Assembly: GCA_009993885.1 (NCBI GenBank)
Contig: JAACSN010000010.1
Location: 16,945-80,944, forward strand
Source: Alphaproteobacteria bacterium
Lineage (GTDB): Bacteria > Pseudomonadota > Alphaproteobacteria > Caedimonadales > UBA9215
DNA length: 64,000 bases
Direction: 5' to 3'
The position numbers and the translations under genes are program-made. Each line of letters opens with the position of its first letter. Within the stretch, counting starts at the first letter, position 1. Shown here in pieces: positions 15,132 to 30,225 of the stretch. The notes under the pieces are model-generated. The model was given only the letters and a program-made list of their open reading frames with translations. It searched no databases and was not told where the DNA came from.

Positions 15132-15701
15132 TCATTTTTCAAAACGCCTAAACCATTCTAAACGATACGCTTGAGCAAACACCGCGTCTTGAATATAGAG
15201 CATATTCTCTGAATTCCTGCTATTTGCAGCTTTGCTAAAGTTATAGCTGCCAGTAATCAACCGTGCCCCGTCGACGATGATAGTCTTATTGTGGGCAATG
15301 CCTTGCACATCATCTATTTTGGTTTTTATGCCTGCTTTGCTAAGGCGATGGATTTGAGAGTATGGTGCTTTGAGTTGGCTTTTATCAAAGAGGATTTTTA
15401 CAGTGATCCCCTTTCTATGAGCCTCAATCAAAGCATCAGAAATAGGCAAGGAGGTAAAGCTGTAGGCCTGAACAAGGATTTCTTTCTTGGCTGATTGGAT
15501 GGCATGTAGGGCTAGCTTCTCGCATTGCCCCTCAGGAGAAAAACACACGTTAAGCGGAGGTGATTCCGTTTCAGAGGAAAACACCATTGGCAATTGGCCT
15601 TCGTAATACAGGTAGCCAGAGGCAAATCCAAATAGGAACAACAAAGGCATAACGCTTAGGGTAGATGTTGCTCTCTTGCGGTGTATTTTCTTAGATGTCA
15701 T
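15132..15701 (-). CDS. Phospholipase D-family endonuclease, Nuc-like (single HKD motif), with N-terminal signal/anchor
   Basis: HNKTIIVDGARLITGSYN matches HxKxxxxDxxxxxxGSxN. N-terminal hydrophobic segment LSVMPLLFLFGFASGYLYY. 11-nt overlap with the upstream gene. Confidence 0.85.
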   Translation of the reverse strand: MTSKKIHRKRATSTLSVMPLLFLFGFASGYLYYEGQLPMVFSSETESPPLNVCFSPEGQCEKLALHAIQSAKKEILVQAYSFTSLPISDALIEAHRKGITVKILFDKSQLKAPYSQIHRLSKAGIKTKIDDVQGIAHNKTIIVDGARLITGSYNFSKAANSRNSENMLYIQDAVFAQAYRLEWFRRFEK

Positions 15702-21500: not shown

Positions 21501-23637
21501 TCTCAAATTTGACGATCAAATTGAGGTGAAGAAAACAGAAGCTCCAGAGACGAAAGAGAAGCAGGAGACACTAGAAAAGCAAGTTGAAGCAGTCGTACCT
21601 ATATCTCCATTTGCTTCAGCATCAAAGAAAGCTGTTCAGCCTAAAGAAGAGCTGCCTACCACTAGCCCTCCAGTGGAGCCGGTTGTTGATACTATAGTTT
21701 CTGAGCCAGACAAAAAGACAGCTCCTGAGGCAGGAGAAAACAGAAAAGCGGATGTGCCCAAAGCTGAACAAACTGTTGTTGAGACTCCACTCAAACAACA
21801 AAAACAACGGCCAGACCGCAAGCAGAAACTACCCACGCAAGACTTCCAAAAGCTTATAAGAGATGTCGAAGGGGCCATCCGCATTGAAGATCTAGCAAAG
21901 GATGTTTTAGGGGCTCGAAATCTTAACACCAGCTTATCTAATTCTTCCCAACTAAGGTTTGGGCGTCAGGGAAGTTTGTCTATTGAGTTAAAGGGGCAAT
22001 ATGCAGGTTCTTGGAAAAACTGGGAAAATGATGAAAAAGGCGGCCCCTTAAAGCTCATTCAAAATGAAAAAGGATTAGATTTTAATGCGTCTCTTGCCTT
22101 TGCATCAAACTACTGCCGAGGAAGTATTGCAAAGGATATTGATAATTTCTTAAAGGGCAAAAAAGGGCGAGAGCTTTCTCCTGCTGAACGTAAAGCTCAA
22201 GAAGCAGCCTATAAAGCAGAATGCCTTAAACAAGAAGCAGAAACACTGCGTATTAGTGATGCAAAAGTTCAAGACATCCAAGCACTCGTTGCAAAGGCTC
22301 ATCCCCTTACGGGTACGCCCGCAGAAACTTATTTGCGAAAAGAACGCGGCATTCAAGGTGATCTACCAGAGTCCTTAAGGTACCTAGCGCCAAAAACCTC
22401 ATTTTCCTATAAAGGAAAAAGCATCCCAATAAAAAGTGGTGCGCTACTATCGGTTGCAACGGATCGTCACGGTGTGATTAAAGCTATTCAAATAACTCAG
22501 CTCACAGAAGATGGAAAAAAAGCTGTTGGATTTGATGGGGCTAAGCTACCAAAAAGAACCTATGGCGTTCAAAAAAGCTCTTTTGTAGAGCTTCAAAAAG
22601 GAAGTCTTAAAGATCCTATCATTCTATCTGAAGGCATTGAAACAGCGCTCTCGGTGAAAGAAACAGGAATTAAAGGAAGAATTTTGTGCTCCCTTGGAAC
22701 CTCTAATGTCGGTAATCTTGACGTGAAAGGTCGAGATATTGTTATCGCAGCAGATTGGGATGGCAGCTTTGAAGTGCAATCTTGGAAAGCAACAGAGAAA
22801 GCTAGGGTAGGTCTTGAAGCTAAAGGAAATGCTGTTTCTTATATTCTGCCCATAAAAGATCCATGGAAAACGCCAGAATTGACCTCCGAGTTAAGAAATG
22901 GAAAACTGGATTTTAACGATCTCTTAAAACAAGAAGGTGTAAACTCAGTAATAGATCGTGTATCAGATCGACTCCCCGGGGTTATTGGCACGATGTCATC
23001 CTCTAGGGAACTTCAAATTAAGGATTCCAATGAAAGACAAGAAAGTAATCCCCTTTCCGAAAAACAATCTACTGACCCTCGGGTTAACCTGTCAGCAGAT
23101 CACGCCAAGGACCCGGATCAGCTTTTGGCGCAAATGGACAAAGCAACTTCTCAAGAAGCGGCCTTAAAAGGCAATATCCTCGCTTACTTTGAGCAGGAAC
23201 TTTCGAAACCAGAAAATAGAAACTGGAACAAAGAACACGTCCTAGAGGACGTTCAGAAGAACCCTCTTGATGCCCTTAGCTGGTGGCATAAAGACTGTGG
23301 CGGCAGTGCGTTCGACCCTAACAAATCTCTGAATGATCAGCCTTCTAATTCACAGACTGGCAGCTCTTTGGACGATTCCCTAAAAATCCCTGAGGATGAT
23401 TTTGCAAAAGACTTCGCCAAAGAGCTTAAAATTTTGGATGACAGCATCGAACGCGTTTCTCATGAGCAAGGTTACCAAGGTGCTTTTGCCAATTATACCC
23501 AACAAAGAGAAAACCTTCTAAAGGGCCTTGATGGTGCTAAAATAGAAGAACTCAAAGCACACGAACCAGAGCTAGCTCATCGCATTGAAGAATGGCAAAC
23601 CTTAGAAAAAATTCGTGAGATAGGCTTAGGATTATAG
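18538..23637 (+). CDS. traA: Ti-type TraA: MobA/MobL (MOBQ) relaxase, RecD/TraA-like helicase and C-terminal primase-associated/Toprim domain
   Basis: Start trimmed to the ATG at 18538 (GGAG RBS; MALAHTRLKVFSRS...SLAYRAG with the relaxase Tyr). His motif HFDVDKEGNRKPHCHAVM. Walker A GYAGAGKTT (nt ~19732) and Walker B VLDEAG. C-terminal LRFGRQGSLSIELKGQYAGSWKNWENDEKGGPLKLI, then Toprim ILSEGIETALS ... IAADWDG (nt ~21860-22940). Confidence 0.9.
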   Translation: MALAHTRLKVFSRSSRRTVGSLAYRAGVCLLDKETGELHDYSKKQVHSVDLLIPEDAPQWAQDLQKKIAENRTAGVQELSDIAEAAEKRKDSQVYREYEFSLHRELTDAQNKELALKFLQEQFCSRGMMVKANFHFDVDKEGNRKPHCHAVMLTRRLEEHGPSKLKDRSWNHKDLATEWRKEFCNYSNEAFKKLGLDIVLDPRTYAEQGINIEPQTKLSRNTLEIEQRHGVNPKDILSTPVTTRGQDFQQISLRNLYKIIDNPKIVLEDISKQQMTFMWGDVVKFLARHIDDQALFERVCLKLQSSEELVCVKEGGSLSQRVFTTKTRLEEETRFVENVRSLKHSHTHSVDPTVVQSVIDSTNHAFQERSKKPKASLSDDQVRAIRHMASSNQLSFIEGYAGAGKTTVMRGMKEIWEANGYKVYGLAPTGRASDNLADCGISSQTVDRFLRSYEHGQNQLNSKSILVLDEAGMVSSKNFTALIEAIKELGVKLVACGDRGQLSPVEAGAPFRLAINEIGKADLTTVLRQKVPWQSQATSLFGEGKTEDALRLYGEHGRIKIVEESLPATIVEQYNISRRITGNIAHEMNQDIERAKEHGEELPFKKHHDYGLFIDWKNTRDTCTKEIFQNIKTYKDVMKEMGVDGVDFCNKVINHPQKITQEYDKYRLAKKLEVDWRIDVTHTCDPRLETKKELISDWFKSTQDHPEAKQAMMAYSNRDVLHLNMMARQLKKESGEIGKDEFTYTIERNDGEELGTRKIILEERTFSKGDQIVFTENNTGLGVRNGTLGQITSLDKSKITATFKEEGVEKEVSFSPNLYKRFDNGWALTIHKNQGATVDLAFKLASFEEYKNLSYVGMTRHEKDAKLYGSDFDFYRDEKIYDRLGRHQDKLSSLDYLSPEDSEKLLKSERDRLNKTFEAVGRKLEAVGYVGGRAWGQLCDKFLGRTPESNLIRVDYEALHYHKTEATRADEVLRGIKYDDSILSRDVILKFDDQIEVKKTEAPETKEKQETLEKQVEAVVPISPFASASKKAVQPKEELPTTSPPVEPVVDTIVSEPDKKTAPEAGENRKADVPKAEQTVVETPLKQQKQRPDRKQKLPTQDFQKLIRDVEGAIRIEDLAKDVLGARNLNTSLSNSSQLRFGRQGSLSIELKGQYAGSWKNWENDEKGGPLKLIQNEKGLDFNASLAFASNYCRGSIAKDIDNFLKGKKGRELSPAERKAQEAAYKAECLKQEAETLRISDAKVQDIQALVAKAHPLTGTPAETYLRKERGIQGDLPESLRYLAPKTSFSYKGKSIPIKSGALLSVATDRHGVIKAIQITQLTEDGKKAVGFDGAKLPKRTYGVQKSSFVELQKGSLKDPIILSEGIETALSVKETGIKGRILCSLGTSNVGNLDVKGRDIVIAADWDGSFEVQSWKATEKARVGLEAKGNAVSYILPIKDPWKTPELTSELRNGKLDFNDLLKQEGVNSVIDRVSDRLPGVIGTMSSSRELQIKDSNERQESNPLSEKQSTDPRVNLSADHAKDPDQLLAQMDKATSQEAALKGNILAYFEQELSKPENRNWNKEHVLEDVQKNPLDALSWWHKDCGGSAFDPNKSLNDQPSNSQTGSSLDDSLKIPEDDFAKDFAKELKILDDSIERVSHEQGYQGAFANYTQQRENLLKGLDGAKIEELKAHEPELAHRIEEWQTLEKIREIGLGL

Positions 23638-23778
23638 ATATCAATCTTTATGCTGTATACGTTTTCGCATTTCTTTTTTGTAGTCTTGTTGGCACATTTT
23701 GTCAAAAAACAATTATCTTGACGGTGCCCCCAGACAGCAGCTTATGATAACTTATAGAAAAATTGAAAAGAATATTAA

Positions 23779-26700
23779 ATGGTGAGAAGACTCTATTTCC
23801 AAAAATCAATTAAGGAGCTTGAAGATATTTTTGCACGGAAAAGTAGTGATTGTAATGTACTTGCCGACCTAAAAAGCGAGCTAGAGTTTCGAAACACCAA
23901 AAGAGCACTGTCGCTGAAGGTTAAAGTGATTGATATGCTTCAAAGCCTCAAAAAGGCAGTACCAAAAGGAGAAACATGGCATATCTCTGAAAAGCCAGCA
24001 CAAATGACCATAGAACATCCATCGACAGAGCCAACGAGTCCTGAAGTCAAAAGAACTACTTTAAAGCGCAATGATTTTGGTCCCAAACCAGCCATGGAAA
24101 ATGCCCCTTCAGATATACTTCAAGCATGGACTGCCCTCGAAGTACTGTCTCCGCAAGGCTACAAGAATGAAGCGGACTTAGCTGCTGGTGATAAATCTAG
24201 AATCGCACGTTTCGATGAAAGAGACCTACCTTGGAAGCTGGGCGAAAGATCGCGACCGAAGAAGCGACTTTATTACGAACTCATTTTAGGTTCTATCGCT
24301 CTTGCTCCTGCCGTTGAAGAACTCCTGAAACTCTACTCCGATGATAGACCAGATAAGCCAAGCATGAAAGGCTTTTGCCCGATTGCTACCATACTGCTAG
24401 ACAAGGAGGGTAGACCACTAGAGGAAGAAACCTCAGCTGCAATATCAAGTTTTGCATGGGGGGTGCCTATCGCTTTGCAAGGCGATTTGAAAAGCCTTGC
24501 TGATTGGCCACAAAAAGAAAAGCAAATCCTATCTACCTTTCGGAAGCATCTTATTAGGCGGGATAGCAATAACGAAATTATCCCTCTTACGAAAAGCCAT
24601 ATCACAGAGTTGTTTGATCATCTCGTTGCCGCTTTGAGTCTCGTAGGCCATGAGATAAAAGCTCCATACTTCGCATTGCGTCGCTTTGAATATTTTGCTA
24701 GCAAGACTCCGCCCGAGCCAGGACTGCTGAACTCGTTTTTTCTTGAAGATCTTTCACTCGCTCTAACATTGCACAACAATAATAATCTCCCACATGCCCT
24801 TAAGCATTATCTGGGAGTCTCCAGCCCCTTACAGCAAACGGACTTGCTGAAAGATGACGCAGGCTTGCAGCAATTACTACAGCCAGCTTATACGCCACTT
24901 GGAAGATGGCCCGGAAATGGACGCCATCCTCTCGCATTGCTTCAACAAGCAGCAGTCAACGCTTCAGATAAACGACTGTTGGACACCGGAATTTTGGCTG
25001 TGAATGGCCCGCCAGGTACAGGTAAAACTACACTGCTTCGGGACGTTGTGGCCGCGCGGCTAATTGAACGTGCAATGGTGATGAGCGAGTTCAAAAGGCC
25101 ATCTAGCGCATTTATCCCAACAAACCAAAGCTTCCAAAGAAGCGGAGCAAAGATTGTGCTTCACAAGTTAGATGATCGACTCAAAGGCTTTGAGATGGTG
25201 GTCGCATCATCCAACAATAAAGCGGTGGAAAACGTAAGTGCTGAGCTGCCTGCATTGGAAGCTATTGCACAAGATGCGACCAGCCTTCGGTATTTCAAAA
25301 GCATCTCAGATAAGATTCTTGGGCGTGAAAGCTGGGGTACAATCGCAGCTGTACTTGGCAACTCTTCTAATCGATACCTGTTTTCGCAGGCTTTCTGGCG
25401 CGACGAAGAGAACGGGCTTTCTACCTATCTTAATCACGCAAGTGGACTGCCACAGACTGTTTCGGAACTACAGGAAAATGGTCCGTCGATAATACGTAAC
25501 CGTGAAATCATAGATAGTGAACATCCTCCTGCGAACGCGCGCGAAGCACTGGTACGTTGGGAAACGGCGCGTGCAGATTTTCTCGGTGCGCACAAAGCAT
25601 CGACAGAGTCTCAAAAAACTCTTCAAGCCATTCACAAAAACCTTATTTTTCTAGCAAGGATCATTGCTGAGATGGAGGTTCTGGAAAAACAAATCGCATT
25701 ATCTGAAGAAGAAGCAAAAAGCCTTTCACCTTCGATTGCGGATGCGCAGGAACAGCTAGAGTGCGCAGATAAAGCACTCAAAGAAAGCGAACGAGCTCAG
25801 AAAAACAACCTTGTGCACCGTCCAGCTTTCTTTGCTCGCCTGTTTCGAACAGGGCAATTCAAATACTGGCGATCTCACCATGATGAGCTTTCAACGACTG
25901 CGCTCAAAGATAAAAATATAGCCGTATCGTACAAATTAGAGCTCGAAGAACTTCGAGCAAAATTATCAGAGAGGCATCGATCTATTGCCGAAGCAAAAGC
26001 TCAGCTTACAAGCCTCGAATCTGAAAAGACGAACCTGGAAGAAAAAATTGAAAGTGCTAAGGCTGATCTGGGCATCCCTATCCCTGATGCAGATTTTTTC
26101 GCTCTGGATCATGAAAATATCCAGATGGCCAATGTATGGTTTAACGCCGCTGAGCATCAATTGCGTGATCGGGTTTTCGAAACGGCCATTGCTTTGCACC
26201 GTGCATTCATCGACTGTGCGGCTGATCCGCTCAGACAGAATTTATCTATCTTCACAGAGAGTTTTTGTACACGCTCCTTTGGCACGTCGCAAAAGGATGA
26301 TCTGATTGCTGATTTGTGGTCGTCATTCTTCCTTGTCGTGCCAGTGGTCTCGACAACTTTTGCATCTGTCCACAGGATGTTTTCACGTCTACCCTCCGAA
26401 GCGCTTGGCTGGTTGTTGGTTGATGAAGCCGGTCAAGCCCTTCCTCAAGCTGCGGTCGGCGCGATGATACGAACAAAAAGATCAGTTGTAGTGGGTGACC
26501 CGTTGCAGATCGAGCCAGTAGTGACCCTTCCCAGAACCTTAACCGAAGAAGTTTGCAGGTTTTTCGGGATTGATCCTTTGAAGTACAATGCGCCCGACGC
26601 ATCGGTGCAGACGGTAGCAGATGCTTCGAGCATGTACTGCGCAAGATTTCCGATAGGAAGCGGGCATAGGGATGTGGGTGCTCCACTTCTTGTGCATCGC

Positions 26701-27279
26701 CGCTGCGAAAGTCCCATGTTCGATATCTCTAACGAAATTGCCTACGCAAACCTTATGGTGCAGGCGAAAAAACCAACCTCTGCGCATTCAATTCTAGGGT
26801 TTTCATGTTGGATAGATGTTGTGGGTAAGCCTGGGCCGGATAAATGGTGTGCTGATGAGGCAGTTGTCCTCATAGACATGCTTCGTAAACTTCGAGGTTC
26901 TGGGGCTAGATCTGATCTCTACATCGTGACACCATTTGTAATTGTGCAGAATAATCTCAGGCAAGAATTGCTCAAAAGCGGCGTTTTGGAGGGCTGGACG
27001 AAAAACCCCAAGGCATGGGTCTGGGAGCATGTTGGTACGGTCCACACCGTACAAGGACGGGAAGCTGAAATTGTCTTTTTCGTCCTTGGTGCCCAAGGTT
27101 CCTCACAAAATGGTGCGCGTGGATGGGCGGGTGGCAGGCCAAATCTCGTAAATGTAGCAGTAACTCGTGCGAAAGCTTCATTGTTTGTGATTGGTAACCG
27201 TCAGCTTTGGAAATCATCAGGGGTGTTCTCCGTGCTAGCCCGATTCTTACCTGAATCTTCGAAAGGTGGCGTGTCCTGA
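23779..27279 (+). CDS. Large SF1 (UPF1/DNA2-like) helicase with ~400-aa unknown N-terminal domain and coiled-coil insertion
   Basis: Motif I GPPGTGKTT (aa 410), Ia VVASSNNKAVENV, II LLVDEAGQA (aa ~880), VVVGDPLQIEP, VHTVQGREAEIVFF, NVAVTRAKASLFVIG. Heptad-rich aa ~600-770 between motifs Ia and II. Confidence 0.85.
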   Translation: MVRRLYFQKSIKELEDIFARKSSDCNVLADLKSELEFRNTKRALSLKVKVIDMLQSLKKAVPKGETWHISEKPAQMTIEHPSTEPTSPEVKRTTLKRNDFGPKPAMENAPSDILQAWTALEVLSPQGYKNEADLAAGDKSRIARFDERDLPWKLGERSRPKKRLYYELILGSIALAPAVEELLKLYSDDRPDKPSMKGFCPIATILLDKEGRPLEEETSAAISSFAWGVPIALQGDLKSLADWPQKEKQILSTFRKHLIRRDSNNEIIPLTKSHITELFDHLVAALSLVGHEIKAPYFALRRFEYFASKTPPEPGLLNSFFLEDLSLALTLHNNNNLPHALKHYLGVSSPLQQTDLLKDDAGLQQLLQPAYTPLGRWPGNGRHPLALLQQAAVNASDKRLLDTGILAVNGPPGTGKTTLLRDVVAARLIERAMVMSEFKRPSSAFIPTNQSFQRSGAKIVLHKLDDRLKGFEMVVASSNNKAVENVSAELPALEAIAQDATSLRYFKSISDKILGRESWGTIAAVLGNSSNRYLFSQAFWRDEENGLSTYLNHASGLPQTVSELQENGPSIIRNREIIDSEHPPANAREALVRWETARADFLGAHKASTESQKTLQAIHKNLIFLARIIAEMEVLEKQIALSEEEAKSLSPSIADAQEQLECADKALKESERAQKNNLVHRPAFFARLFRTGQFKYWRSHHDELSTTALKDKNIAVSYKLELEELRAKLSERHRSIAEAKAQLTSLESEKTNLEEKIESAKADLGIPIPDADFFALDHENIQMANVWFNAAEHQLRDRVFETAIALHRAFIDCAADPLRQNLSIFTESFCTRSFGTSQKDDLIADLWSSFFLVVPVVSTTFASVHRMFSRLPSEALGWLLVDEAGQALPQAAVGAMIRTKRSVVVGDPLQIEPVVTLPRTLTEEVCRFFGIDPLKYNAPDASVQTVADASSMYCARFPIGSGHRDVGAPLLVHRRCESPMFDISNEIAYANLMVQAKKPTSAHSILGFSCWIDVVGKPGPDKWCADEAVVLIDMLRKLRGSGARSDLYIVTPFVIVQNNLRQELLKSGVLEGWTKNPKAWVWEHVGTVHTVQGREAEIVFFVLGAQGSSQNGARGWAGGRPNLVNVAVTRAKASLFVIGNRQLWKSSGVFSVLARFLPESSKGGVS

Positions 27280-27303: not shown

Positions 27304-27435
27304 GCCAAAGAGCTTAAAATTTTGGATGACAGCATCTAGCGCGTTTCTCATAAGAAAGATTACCAAGGCGTCCTCGCTAACTATACCCATCAAAACCAGC
27401 AAGCACAAACCCGTGGTGCTGAGTTAAAGTTTTAA
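27304..27435 (+). pseudogene. Degenerate extra copy (tail 2) of the traA 3' end
   Basis: 27304-27336 is identical to 23416-23448. Translation AKELKILDDSI*RVSHKKDYQGVLANYTHQNQQAQTRGAELKF* versus the TraA C-terminus AKELKILDDSIERVSHEQGYQGAFANYTQQ...; it has an internal deletion and an in-frame stop. Confidence 0.75.
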
Positions 27436-27611: not shown

Positions 27612-28418
27612 ATGGTTTCAAACAATCAAAATCAATCTAATTTAAATGAAAATTCCTTATATTTTCTTAATGAAAGGCTCGTCGCTGACGCATTCTGGGG
27701 TTTTGTTTATAAAAATAGCTTGAAAAAAACAGGTTTCCCCGAAAATATAAAAGACATCCCTAAAGATTTATGGTCACGTGAGCGTATAATTGATTTATTA
27801 AAAGAATATAAAATTACATTAAAAGCAGAGGGCGACCTAGAGGAGCTTATTGAGTCCATATATTTAGTAGGTTCTAATATAATTACTAAACATATGAAAG
27901 AAGGAAAAAACATAATAGGGCCTGTATATGTTGAGGACTTTAAAGAGTGCAAAGATCCATTTTTTAATTTTTCTCACCTTGTAAATCGGCTTAAAAGCGA
28001 CTCAAACGAAAACTGTGACTATTTACTGAAATTAAATGGTGACTATGAGCTATCAGGAGATTTCCTTTTGAGAACTCCATTACCCTCTGTGGTGCTATTA
28101 AAAGAAGAGCCTAAAAAAAAGATTAATATCATAATCCCAAATACAGAAAAGGCGTTAGGGTATCAGAAAACTCTTATTTTACCGATGCAAGAGTTATCAA
28201 CATTACCAAATAATAAAGAGGGGTATAAATACTTTGCAACAGGTATCTTTCATATTCCAACACAAATCCCTCATGATAAGTATTGGGCGAAATTAATTCC
28301 AAACAGTTTGTGCTTTTTAGAAGCCTTTAATGCAATCATAGCAAAAGGACAAATTGTGAAGAAAAAAAAGAAGAAAGACTTTTTTAAGAACGCTTTTTCA
28401 AGATTTTTTAAAAAATGA
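27612..28418 (+). CDS. Hypothetical protein (268 aa), visibly more AT-rich than its neighbours, Lys-rich tail
   Basis: Clean ORF with ATG start. No recognisable motif. Sits between two traA-tail remnants. Confidence 0.55.
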   Translation: MVSNNQNQSNLNENSLYFLNERLVADAFWGFVYKNSLKKTGFPENIKDIPKDLWSRERIIDLLKEYKITLKAEGDLEELIESIYLVGSNIITKHMKEGKNIIGPVYVEDFKECKDPFFNFSHLVNRLKSDSNENCDYLLKLNGDYELSGDFLLRTPLPSVVLLKEEPKKKINIIIPNTEKALGYQKTLILPMQELSTLPNNKEGYKYFATGIFHIPTQIPHDKYWAKLIPNSLCFLEAFNAIIAKGQIVKKKKKKDFFKNAFSRFFKK

Positions 28419-28452: not shown

Positions 28453-28604
28453 GCAACTATATCCAATAACGCGAAGACCTCTTCAAAGGCCTTGATGACG
28501 CCAAGATAAAAGCACTCAAAACCCACGAGCCTGAACCAGCCCATCGTATCGAAGAATATCAAAATTCGCAAGCACAAGCCAGTGGGGTTGGTTTAGGAAT
28601 TTAA
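28453..28604 (+). pseudogene. Degenerate extra copy (tail 3) of the traA 3' end
   Basis: Translation NYIQ*REDLFKGLDDAKIKALKTHEPEPAHRIEEYQNSQAQASGVGLGI* aligns with the TraA end NYTQQRENLLKGLDGAKIEELKAHEPELAHRIEEWQTLEKIREIGLGL*. Confidence 0.8.
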
Positions 28605-28606
28605 GG

Positions 28607-29926
28607 TTACTCTTTTTTCTCAAAAATGCGTTTACCATTTTTATCTTCCCTTTTACTTGAGTACTGAAAGAATGAATAGAAACGTTGAGGGTGAGTTCCT
28701 ATAAATCCTCTGCAAATCACCTTGTTTTGAACAAACGCATCAACCGATAATTCGTTAGGATTTAGGTCTAAAGCAAAACTTTTTCTGTATGGACATAAGT
28801 ATATTATTTTTGTAATTCCAGCCGCTATGACTAATTTGCTGCATAGGTGACATGGAAAAGTTGTTGTATATAGAGTGCTACCGTGAAGCTTTACTCCTCT
28901 GCAAGCTGCTGTAGCAATCGCCGTTTGCTCTGCGTGGACATTTTGTGAAAATTCTAAAAGATCACCCAATCTGCTGTTTGTGAGGTAAGTCTTAACTTGT
29001 TCTTTATTGAGTTCAAATTTTTCTTCTAGTGAGGTGCTTAGATCTTCTATTAAGTCCTTTTTATGCCGTGCATTTGTATCATCGCCTTGTGTGTCACGAT
29101 AGACGCCACCATGGAATTTAGGCACATTATTGCAACCACTAGCCAACAATTCGCCATGTGAATCAACAATTGCAGATCCGACTTGGCGGGATTGATCAAC
29201 AGAACAACAAGCGGCTGTGTATGCCCAATTCATTGCTACTTCTTCTTCTGTCGGTGGCTCAAATAGGTTCTTTTTCAAAATCAGTTTCAAAAAACGTTTT
29301 ATTGGCTCTTTAAAATCATCACCTCTATAGTCATTGAGAAAATAGTCACAAAGAGGTAGTGTTTTAAGCATTTGTTGACCAATTCTACGATTTTCTTTTT
29401 TATCTGGAATAATAAGATCTTCTCCCTCATCTCGAATAATAAGATTTTGTATATACGCTTCTTTTAACGATTTTTCATCCAAGTCTTTTCTAAAAATAAA
29501 TTTTTTATTCTTCGTTTCTTTGAAATTTCCCCCTGTAAGCTCACCAAAAGTCTTTCTGCGCAAGCGTCGTCTTGCATCATTTCGAGAGGTGTGGACTCCC
29601 AATCCATAAAAATATTTGTTTTCATTTTTTAGCTCATTATATTCCTCTTCCCGTTTTAGATGACTTATGACTACAATGCTCTTCTCGCCTGTTTGCTCTT
29701 GCAGCTTTTCCTTAATTTTATTCAATAGATTAATATCGTTATTACCACTATCGATTTTCTCCTTTGTGCTAATGGGACTTCCTTTAATAAGTCCAGATAC
29801 TTTAACTTCCTGTACATTGTATCCAAGTTGTGATCCGCAAAATTCAATTTCAGAGTAGATATCATCAAAACGTGAGGCCACTCTTCCTACCAGTGCAATA
29901 ATAATAGGTTGTTCCGTTTTACTCAT
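28607..29926 (-). CDS. Anti-phage-type dCTP/dCMP deaminase (N-terminal kinase-like domain and C-terminal zinc cytidine deaminase; DcdV-like)
   Basis: The ORF-track start is TTG. The ATG at 29926 has an AAGGA RBS and an ATGA overlap with the upstream gene. N-terminus IIIALVGRVASRF..., central IIRDEGED...GQQMLKTLPLCDYFLN, deaminase core DQSRQVGSAIV...NVHAEQTAIATAA...TTFPCHLCSKLVIAAGITKIIY. Confidence 0.8.
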   Translation of the reverse strand: MSKTEQPIIIALVGRVASRFDDIYSEIEFCGSQLGYNVQEVKVSGLIKGSPISTKEKIDSGNNDINLLNKIKEKLQEQTGEKSIVVISHLKREEEYNELKNENKYFYGLGVHTSRNDARRRLRRKTFGELTGGNFKETKNKKFIFRKDLDEKSLKEAYIQNLIIRDEGEDLIIPDKKENRRIGQQMLKTLPLCDYFLNDYRGDDFKEPIKRFLKLILKKNLFEPPTEEEVAMNWAYTAACCSVDQSRQVGSAIVDSHGELLASGCNNVPKFHGGVYRDTQGDDTNARHKKDLIEDLSTSLEEKFELNKEQVKTYLTNSRLGDLLEFSQNVHAEQTAIATAACRGVKLHGSTLYTTTFPCHLCSKLVIAAGITKIIYLCPYRKSFALDLNPNELSVDAFVQNKVICRGFIGTHPQRFYSFFQYSSKREDKNGKRIFEKKE

Positions 29927-30225
29927 GATAAATCCTTCCAATAAAAATATGAAAATAAAGCAGCCGTCAGCACATTAAAGACCATCCAGATTTCTTTTGT
30001 TAAATGGATAGGGAGGAATGGATTAAAAAGAATAGCTACGGCAACACAAGACCAGAGTATCCAATCTTTTTCATCTGATATGTAGCGTAAATATGCGGTA
30101 AAGCCTCCTACTCCTGTGACGGCAATTCTTAAGAAAACATAATAACCATACGGCATTGGTAGCAAAGCAATTAAGGAAAGCGCTGCCACGAGTAGAAAAG
30201 GGATTTTGAGGTCAGAGATTTTCAT
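29923..30225 (-). CDS. Small polytopic membrane protein (100 aa)
   Basis: Three to four hydrophobic helices. Start overlaps the upstream gene by 14 nt, and its stop forms ATGA with the deaminase start. Confidence 0.65.
   Translation of the reverse strand: MKISDLKIPFLLVAALSLIALLPMPYGYYVFLRIAVTGVGGFTAYLRYISDEKDWILWSCVAVAILFNPFLPIHLTKEIWMVFNVLTAALFSYFYWKDLS

Follow-up and report, generated by a model that had tools for sequence, protein, structure and literature searches.

A stretch of 64,000 nucleotides (nt) from the alphaproteobacterial assembly GCA_009993885.1 (Caedimonadales, UBA9215; contig JAACSN010000010.1, positions 16,945 to 80,944), called the window below, carries an integrative and conjugative element (ICE) and, as cargo behind its traA gene, a large helicase gene, P0001. 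The motor of this helicase is most closely related to that of MkoC, the protein of the Mokosh type II defence system, and the C-terminal phospholipase D (PLD) nuclease of MkoC is absent. The region ahead of the motor is unrelated to that of MkoC and contains a conserved domain, here named the N-core, for which the fold and sequence searches gave no relative outside this kind of helicase. The PLD-less proteins of this architecture form a clade which most likely arose, to judge from the sequence comparisons, by one or two nuclease losses and then radiated widely. We infer a defence role: at a probability of roughly 0.55, P0001 would be a single-gene immunity or exclusion factor directed against phages or rival mobile DNA.

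The P0001 open reading frame (ORF) occupies positions 23779 to 27279 of the + strand and has 1,166 codons with no internal stops. The original prediction, made from the letters of the window, had quoted six helicase motifs and all of them are present: GPPGTGKTT (amino acids (aa) 410-418, with K416 as the Walker lysine; Walker A itself, GPPGTGKT, aa 410-417, is at 25006-25029), motif Ia VVASSNNKAVENV (aa 474-486), motif II LLVDEAGQA (aa 879-887; 26413-26439), VVVGDPLQIEP (aa 903-913), VHTVQGREAEIVFF (aa 1088-1101) and NVAVTRAKASLFVIG (aa 1125-1139). With Walker A, Ia, II (DEAGQ), III, V and VI all located, the protein is a UPF1-like helicase of superfamily 1B (SF1B), COG1112. The only Pfam families recognized in it are AAA_11 (45.8 bits) and AAA_12 (42.5 bits; cut-off 27), which span aa 395-1141. 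The likeness to the Mokosh helicase component that had been pointed out at the same time is real, MkoC being the closest relative: the PADLOC model PDLC03924 matches aa 380-1161 (24916-27261) with an E value of 1.1e-71 over profile positions 244-967 of 1136. Beyond this match there are only 5 more residues, and profile positions 968-1136 are unmatched. Positions ~980-1132 of the profile correspond to the PLD nuclease, because Nuc-type PLD genes that stand alone in many genomes, one of them in the window (15132-15701), match this part. No PLDc or other nuclease family was found in P0001 using Pfam, PADLOC and NCBIfam, and a motif scan revealed no HxKxxxxD.

Mokosh combines a COG1112 helicase with a PLD nuclease, and mutation of either active site abolishes defence (Millman et al. 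2022, preprint 10.1101/2022.05.11.491447). According to a 2025 preprint the type II protein is a 132-kDa monomer which, in the panel used there, protected only against a single-stranded DNA (ssDNA) phage. Since Mokosh is defined by the helicase plus the PLD, and the latter is absent, P0001 is by its sequence not a member of Mokosh type II but the nearest relative of the motor of that system. The two proteins share a UPF1-like SF1B core in which motifs I and II are separated by the same long insert, and the match (E 1e-71) extends over 724 profile positions; each is encoded by one large gene and is found in islands and mobile elements. Unlike MkoC, P0001 has neither the C-terminal PLD nor its HxKxxxxD motif, and the first 243 profile positions are replaced by a 380-aa N-terminus. 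That the two N-termini are unrelated was indicated by hhalign (0.1% against the true MkoC L047) and by the hidden Markov model (HMM) of the N-core, which was blank in L047 and L048, both being compared as single sequences and without structures, so that very remote homology is possible. These two MkoC proteins, of 1140 and 1182 aa, come from the same class; in L047 Walker A is at 277 and HxKxxxxD at 1082, in L048 they are at 292 and 1120. Mokosh is among the commoner of the recently described defence systems. Because the MkoC model matches PLD-less proteins at about E 1e-70, pipelines lacking a coverage rule could mislabel them as "Mokosh type II".

The insert of the motor extends from motif Ia to motif II (aa 487-878; 25237-26412). 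The 470 aa originally given for the distance between these motifs apply to the spacing from Walker A to DEAGQ (472 aa), that from Ia to II being 392 aa. The insert had also been singled out as a feature of this protein; it is present, but it aligns to MkoC profile positions 402-644, and Walker A lies 402-430 aa ahead of DEAGQ in canonical MkoC and 465 aa ahead of it in a PLD-bearing relative. A long insert is, on these alignments, an ordinary trait of MkoC-type helicases and not special to P0001; it is some 250-300 aa longer than in UPF1-type helicases. A heptad-rich stretch had been placed at aa ~600-770. With a crude, home-made heptad score, aa 698-766 (25870-26076) was the only segment marked, while aa ~596-680 is merely helical-looking. 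Weak matches to LmuB and JetC, which have SMC-like coiled coils, and to PUMA_CC cover aa ~590-780. About 16 residues ahead of the start of Walker A is HPLALLQQAAVN (aa 383-394), the segment LLQQAAVN (aa 387-394) of which we read as the putative Q-motif of UPF1-type helicases. On this reading the motor begins near aa 380, and the part outside it comprises a helical bundle (aa 10-60), a linker (aa 61-105) and the N-core (aa 106-379). The N-terminal 400 aa had been described as free of recognizable motifs and nuclease signatures; there is indeed no Pfam, PDB or nuclease match, but their last part, from about aa 380, already belongs to the helicase.

Structure models were made for the N-terminus. 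An AlphaFold2 model of aa 1-400, based upon 47 family sequences, had a mean predicted local distance difference test score (pLDDT) of 87.9, and aa 100-400 modelled alone gave a pLDDT of 90.9 and a predicted template modelling score of 0.82. The former shows a three-helix bundle (aa 1-60, 23779-23958; helices at 11-20, 25-35 and 41-59; pLDDT 89-98), a disordered linker (aa 61-105, 23959-24093; pLDDT 42-62) and the alpha/beta domain that constitutes the N-core (aa 106 to ~379, 24094-24915). Modelling and HMM searches, which the original prediction had suggested for this region, thus yielded a confident structure and neither a housekeeping nor any other known family. Foldseek revealed no fold match in the PDB (best E 0.13 for the core, 0.13-0.43 over the two models), and an exhaustive VIA-align wide search with the N-core alone gave no match at Z≥5; with the full N-terminus all that the same program gave were trivial matches of helical bundles to aa 3-65. 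At the sequence level, the family profile had no match to the N-core among PDB sequences, a lenient Pfam scan of the 47 members (E≤1) found no recurring family in the N-domain, and none of the PADLOC models matched the N-core of P0001. A fold search of the ESM atlas returned only the N-termini of other AAA_11 helicases from Pseudomonadota and Bacillota. A known fold was rejected as the identity of the N-core on the outcome of these searches. No nuclease fold was among the fold-search matches, although a missing match does not exclude one. A lead from the atlas feature search, the DUF4011 domain of Hhe (score 0.81), was ruled out by hhalign against the genome's own DUF4011 (0.2%) and by the lack of a Pfam DUF4011 match.

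The N-core HMM matched 395 of 403 collected proteins; these included all PLD-bearing N-core forms but not canonical MkoC. In the family alignment the invariant residues of the domain include W117, E121, W152, G211, S319, D324 and W377, and D208 and S223/S224 are nearly invariant. Over 96 full-length homologues the mean identity to P0001 was 77-79% in the RecA parts, 66% in the N-core, 46% in the insert, 41% in the N-terminal bundle and 17% in the linker. This region-wise pattern indicates that motor and N-core alike are under purifying selection, and it argues against a decaying relic.

The origin of the nuclease-free form is suggested by a 1390-aa protein of genome G076 (L050) in which the N-core and helicase are followed by a C-terminal PLD, with HSKTLVVD at aa 1326. 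Its N-terminus was matched by the N-domain profile over 286 columns (hhalign 99.6%, E 4e-24). A database search with L050 gave ten further clusters with N-core, helicase and PLDc_2, from Azospirillum and others; the proteins P0277-P0287 all carry N-core and PLDc_2 and are annotated as "phospholipase D-like domain-containing protein". Behind them in this search came hundreds of PLD-less proteins from Serratia, Enterobacter, E. coli, Klebsiella, Salmonella, Pantoea, Clostridium and Paenibacillus, one Enterobacter cluster alone comprising 1417 sequences. The Azospirillum-type proteins have in common with P0001 the N-core, the distance between this domain and Walker A, and the insert-bearing helicase; they differ in keeping the C-terminal PLDc_2 with HxKxxxxD, in their position basal to the PLD-less clade and in their N-core, which is only ~28% identical to that of P0001. 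For 50 helicase cores a quick maximum-likelihood search was made and the tree rooted on canonical MkoC, which forms a long outgroup branch. In this tree the PLD-bearing N-core forms are a basal grade and the PLD-less forms a derived clade (Shimodaira-Hasegawa-like approximate likelihood ratio test supports of 89 and 97). P0001 lies deep within this clade, in which the PLD-bearing P0287 is also nested. Because the PLD-bearing forms are basal in the MkoC-rooted tree, the direction of change would be nuclease loss.

The N-core had been proposed as a novel sensor or effector. The absence of Pfam, PDB-sequence and PDB-fold matches agrees with its novelty; as to its role, a sensor or regulator appears likelier than an effector because the domain also sits in the basal relatives that keep their PLD nuclease. 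The link to PLD-bearing proteins with the inferred direction of loss, the domain-wise conservation profile and the traA-tail cassette described below are new here. The PLD-less sister group is much the larger, and it has shed a nuclease that the sole genetic data call essential, yet it is conserved and spreading on ICEs, plasmids and islands, including those of E. coli, Klebsiella, Serratia and Enterobacter; such proteins would either defend by another route or have a different function altogether. They offer a clean test of what a Mokosh-type helicase does alone, and with it a domain of ~275 residues that has no detectable structural relative.

More distant helicases share the motor with P0001 to a lesser extent. 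Its only relatives among PDB sequences are UPF1, IGHMBP2 and DNA2 (2XZO, 4B3F and 5EAW), with which it has AAA_11/AAA_12 and the motifs of RecA2 and the Walker A region in common; the similarity is local (17-25 bits, the 17-bit match to DNA2 being confined to motif II), and no CH, R3H, DNA2-type nuclease or iron-sulphur domain was recognized in P0001. Hhe and Nhi are likewise UPF1-like SF1 helicases encoded by single genes as island cargo. The Hhe models match P0001 only around motif II (E ~1e-4; NCBIfam Hhe 19 bits against a cut-off of 2000), and P0001 has neither the DUF4011 N-domain, as noted above, nor the Vsr nuclease. It differs from Nhi in that no PADLOC Nhi model matched at E≤0.01, and neither a nuclease family in aa 1-380 nor a PD-(D/E)xK nuclease was found.

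The N-domain is carried by 802 clusters (50% identity), and more than 100 proteins from several phyla are 50-79% identical to P0001 across 99-100% of its length. With the N-core directly before Walker A and full-length collinearity, P0001 belongs to the PLD-less clade of this as yet unnamed family. Gene order was inspected at 31 loci in genomes and metagenomes, a survey of the kind the original prediction had called for. Defence islands and mobile elements were frequent, as anticipated, but some copies stand amid housekeeping genes without common synteny. The homologues are accessory genes, often in such islands or elements, and are not part of a conserved core synteny. Their defence neighbours include PD-Lambda-4 (three loci), PD-Lambda-5, Hachiman, prokaryotic Argonaute with SIR2/restriction endonuclease, PDC-S51 and IetA. 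The E. coli copy is in an integrase island with HNH and an AAA_15/AAA_21 ATPase plus DUF4435 pair, which we read as PARIS-like; that of Enterobacter is in an smpB-side island with AbiH, and that of Klebsiella in a plasmid region with an HNH endonuclease, an ATP-binding protein, DUF4145 and DUF2441.

In the mechanism that we propose for an immunity or exclusion factor, the helicase gene would have entered the Holosporales conjugative element as a cargo cassette through recombination at the traA 3' end. The N-core would sense a foreign cue, either nucleic acid or protein, or be regulated by it, and the ATP-driven helicase (K416) would translocate along foreign RNA or ssDNA. The invader might be blocked by remodelling or stripping, or by hand-over to a nuclease supplied in trans. 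A PLD in this last role was sought with an HMM of the PLD segment among ORFs of at least 70 aa within ~10 kb, at 29 homologue loci, and the sole match was the window's own Nuc-type PLD (15132-15701, - strand). No other PLD is within reach of the helicase. This one has a hydrophobic N-terminal leader and is probably an exported plasmid-type nuclease. Because of the exported-looking leader it is unlikely to be a cytoplasmic partner.

Several points weigh against a defence function. No phenotype has been reported for any PLD-less family member in the searchable literature. Mokosh defence is lost on mutation of the PLD active site, so that a nuclease-less form may not defend likewise. A downstream gene is tightly coupled to the helicase in about half of the loci but is absent at that of P0001, and the closest relative of P0001 (79% identity) has a DUF4238 gene next. 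Lastly, some homologues are surrounded by housekeeping genes without common synteny (RuvX/RF/PBP1 in genome G009; purine genes in Nitrospira).

A bolder form of the immunity hypothesis, which we regard as no better than tentative, would make the whole PLD-free family a widely radiated, nuclease-independent, single-protein immunity. The N-core, a fold without a solved relative, would then contain in E121, D208, S223/S224 and D324 either a catalytic effector site or a sensor gating a helicase that only translocates.

P0001 was originally described as stand-alone. There is no conserved partner at its locus, but since in the closest relatives the helicase is immediately followed by a DUF4238 gene, the solitary position may partly reflect the cutting of the cassette. 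It is conceivable, if unlikely, that P0001 is the orphaned half of a two-gene module whose downstream effector was cut off at the traA tail, in which case the system would be incomplete and might be inactive. A same-strand gene follows the helicase with a -4/-1 nt overlap or a gap of <45 nt in 13 of the ~29 loci informative on this point, P0005 (79% identity) and L007 (73%) are followed by DUF4238 genes at 30 and 6 nt, and a traA remnant begins only 24 nt past the P0001 stop codon. Clustering of the neighbours gave no conserved partner: what lies downstream is drawn from six or more unrelated families, the coupled genes encoding a membrane protein of ~450 aa (five loci), proteins of 1525 aa (two loci), 397 aa and 1313 aa (the last STAND-like), DUF4238 proteins and IetA. 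At least some of these look like island neighbours rather than partners, because a DUF4238 protein is reported to defend alone and IetA belongs to a separate known system. The remaining loci and the enterobacterial copies are solo; such copies, including the Enterobacter cluster of 1417 sequences and those of Serratia and E. coli, are common and highly conserved, and none has a coupled neighbour. A neighbour gene may nevertheless have been lost downstream of P0001 during cassette cutting, because the closest relative has its DUF4238 gene where the second copy of the traA tail begins here.

The helicase might alternatively serve the element itself, as an accessory factor for processing or establishing transferred DNA or as a counter-defence factor, and this we consider improbable. 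P0001 adjoins traA, and the recurrent neighbours of its homologues are those of the backbones of ICEs and integrative and mobilizable elements: ArdA (5 proteins among 140 neighbours scanned at 27 loci), ArdC, resolvases, relaxases and the type IV coupling protein (T4CP). In ~10 loci the helicase gene is beside ardA or ardC near a relaxase, T4CP or resolvase, and full-length copies are present on 24 plasmids. In those loci, however, it is transcribed divergently from ardA/ardC and not jointly with it; the helicase is missing from most related elements, its position is variable, and copies also occur in non-conjugative integrase islands and at plain chromosomal sites. The nearest characterized relative, moreover, is an anti-phage protein. 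A family borne by phages was rejected as well, only 6 of 50,697 phage records having any match.

That P0001 is a functionless Mokosh type II gene, drifting after loss of its nuclease, is very unlikely: the PLD needed for Mokosh defence is absent and broken copies are known (an internal TAG in genome G001), but here the frame is complete and the motifs are intact, full-length identity of 50-79% is maintained across several phyla, and the contrast between N-core and RecA parts (66-79%) and the linker (17%) is that of purifying selection. Equally little can be said for a housekeeping RNA or DNA helicase of the host, engaged in RNA quality control or repair, to which the distant similarity to UPF1, IGHMBP2 and DNA2 and the few homologues amid housekeeping genes might point, since the MkoC model matches in just 12 of 301 sampled genomes of the class at E≤1e-40 (three of them with true MkoC and one with a PLD-bearing N-core form) and in 5 of 21 relatives at E≤1e-55, the Holosporales copies are without conserved synteny, and the copy in the window is within a cargo hotspot of an ICE.

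The genome of P0001 amounts to 1.53 Mb in 19 contigs. The element in the window is recognizable as an ICE by its integrase, AbiEi/AbiEii, Nuc-type PLD, TraD(Ti), TraA, T4CP, TraG_N and TraC, the traA product being a relaxase-helicase-primase (MobA/MobL, AAA_30 and Toprim). The last 222 nt of traA recur in degenerate form, so that one pair of tails brackets the helicase gene and the next pair a 268-aa orphan. Tail copy 1, the traA 3' end itself (23416-23637, +), is the left border of the helicase cassette and has direct repeats at 27304-27394 (86%) and 28454-28563 (75%). Tail copy 2 (27304-27435, +), a remnant with an in-frame TAG, begins 24 nt past the helicase stop and is the right border. 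The orphan gene P0003 of the next cassette (27612-28418, +) has no Pfam, PADLOC or NCBIfam match and is followed by tail copy 3 (28454-28604, +; 75% identity) and, on the opposite strand (28607-29941, -), by the dCTP-deaminase-type defence gene P0126 (PADLOC dCTPase, E 3.1e-94; Pfam dCMP_cyt_deam_1). The proposed location in a traA-tail hotspot beside a deaminase defence gene is thereby borne out, and the repeats fit an exchange of cargo by recombination at the traA tail. A promoter belonging to the gene itself, on the other hand, could not be demonstrated: the 141-nt spacer upstream of it (23638-23778, +) contains only a 9/12 match, TTGGCA-16-AATTAT (23689-23716), promoter-like matches are at chance frequency in this region, as are those to a terminator for the gene, and no terminator was found after traA.

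Tail copy 2 is a hybrid, its 5' part resembling the resident traA (86%) and its 3' part tail copy 3 (72%), which suggests successive recombinations with different traA alleles. P0003 is AT-rich and its product has a lysine-rich C-terminus.

The N-terminal bundle of P0001 (aa 10-64, 23806-23970), searched alone, matched the N-terminal ~55 residues of the Druantia type III protein DruH3 in PADLOC, weakly but specifically (E 1.2e-5); this bundle may be a module common to several defence proteins.

Other genomes of the order have homologues with 37-39% identity at unrelated sites, one of them broken by a stop codon. This copy, from the same-genus genome G001 (L042:8833-12507; 37% identity), is cut by an internal TAG into ORFs of 832 and 345 aa and is a pseudogene or the product of an assembly error. 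Among the coupled genes, a family of ~340-460-aa proteins overlaps the helicase stop by 1-4 nt at five loci (L001:11513-12856, L011:13498-14853, L013:6012-7343, L024:13501-14511 and L028:13501-14886). The L001 member has N-terminal membrane helices, and that of L028 was blank in Pfam and PADLOC; this membrane protein family is a candidate for a coupled partner or effector. In two Rhizobiales (L008:13528-18105 and L029:13519-18108) the helicase stop is overlapped by 4 nt by the gene for the 1525-aa protein, which has no significant Pfam or PADLOC match. In two Nitrospirota it is the helicase start that is overlapped by 4 nt, by a 124-aa ORF for which no family was matched (L005:7624-7998 and L017:2008-2382). 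Finally, a Gabija-like pair (L066:12189-16449), an OLD-type TOPRIM ATPase plus a UvrD helicase, is located ~700 nt downstream of a 77%-identical homologue in an element with ArdC and a relaxase.

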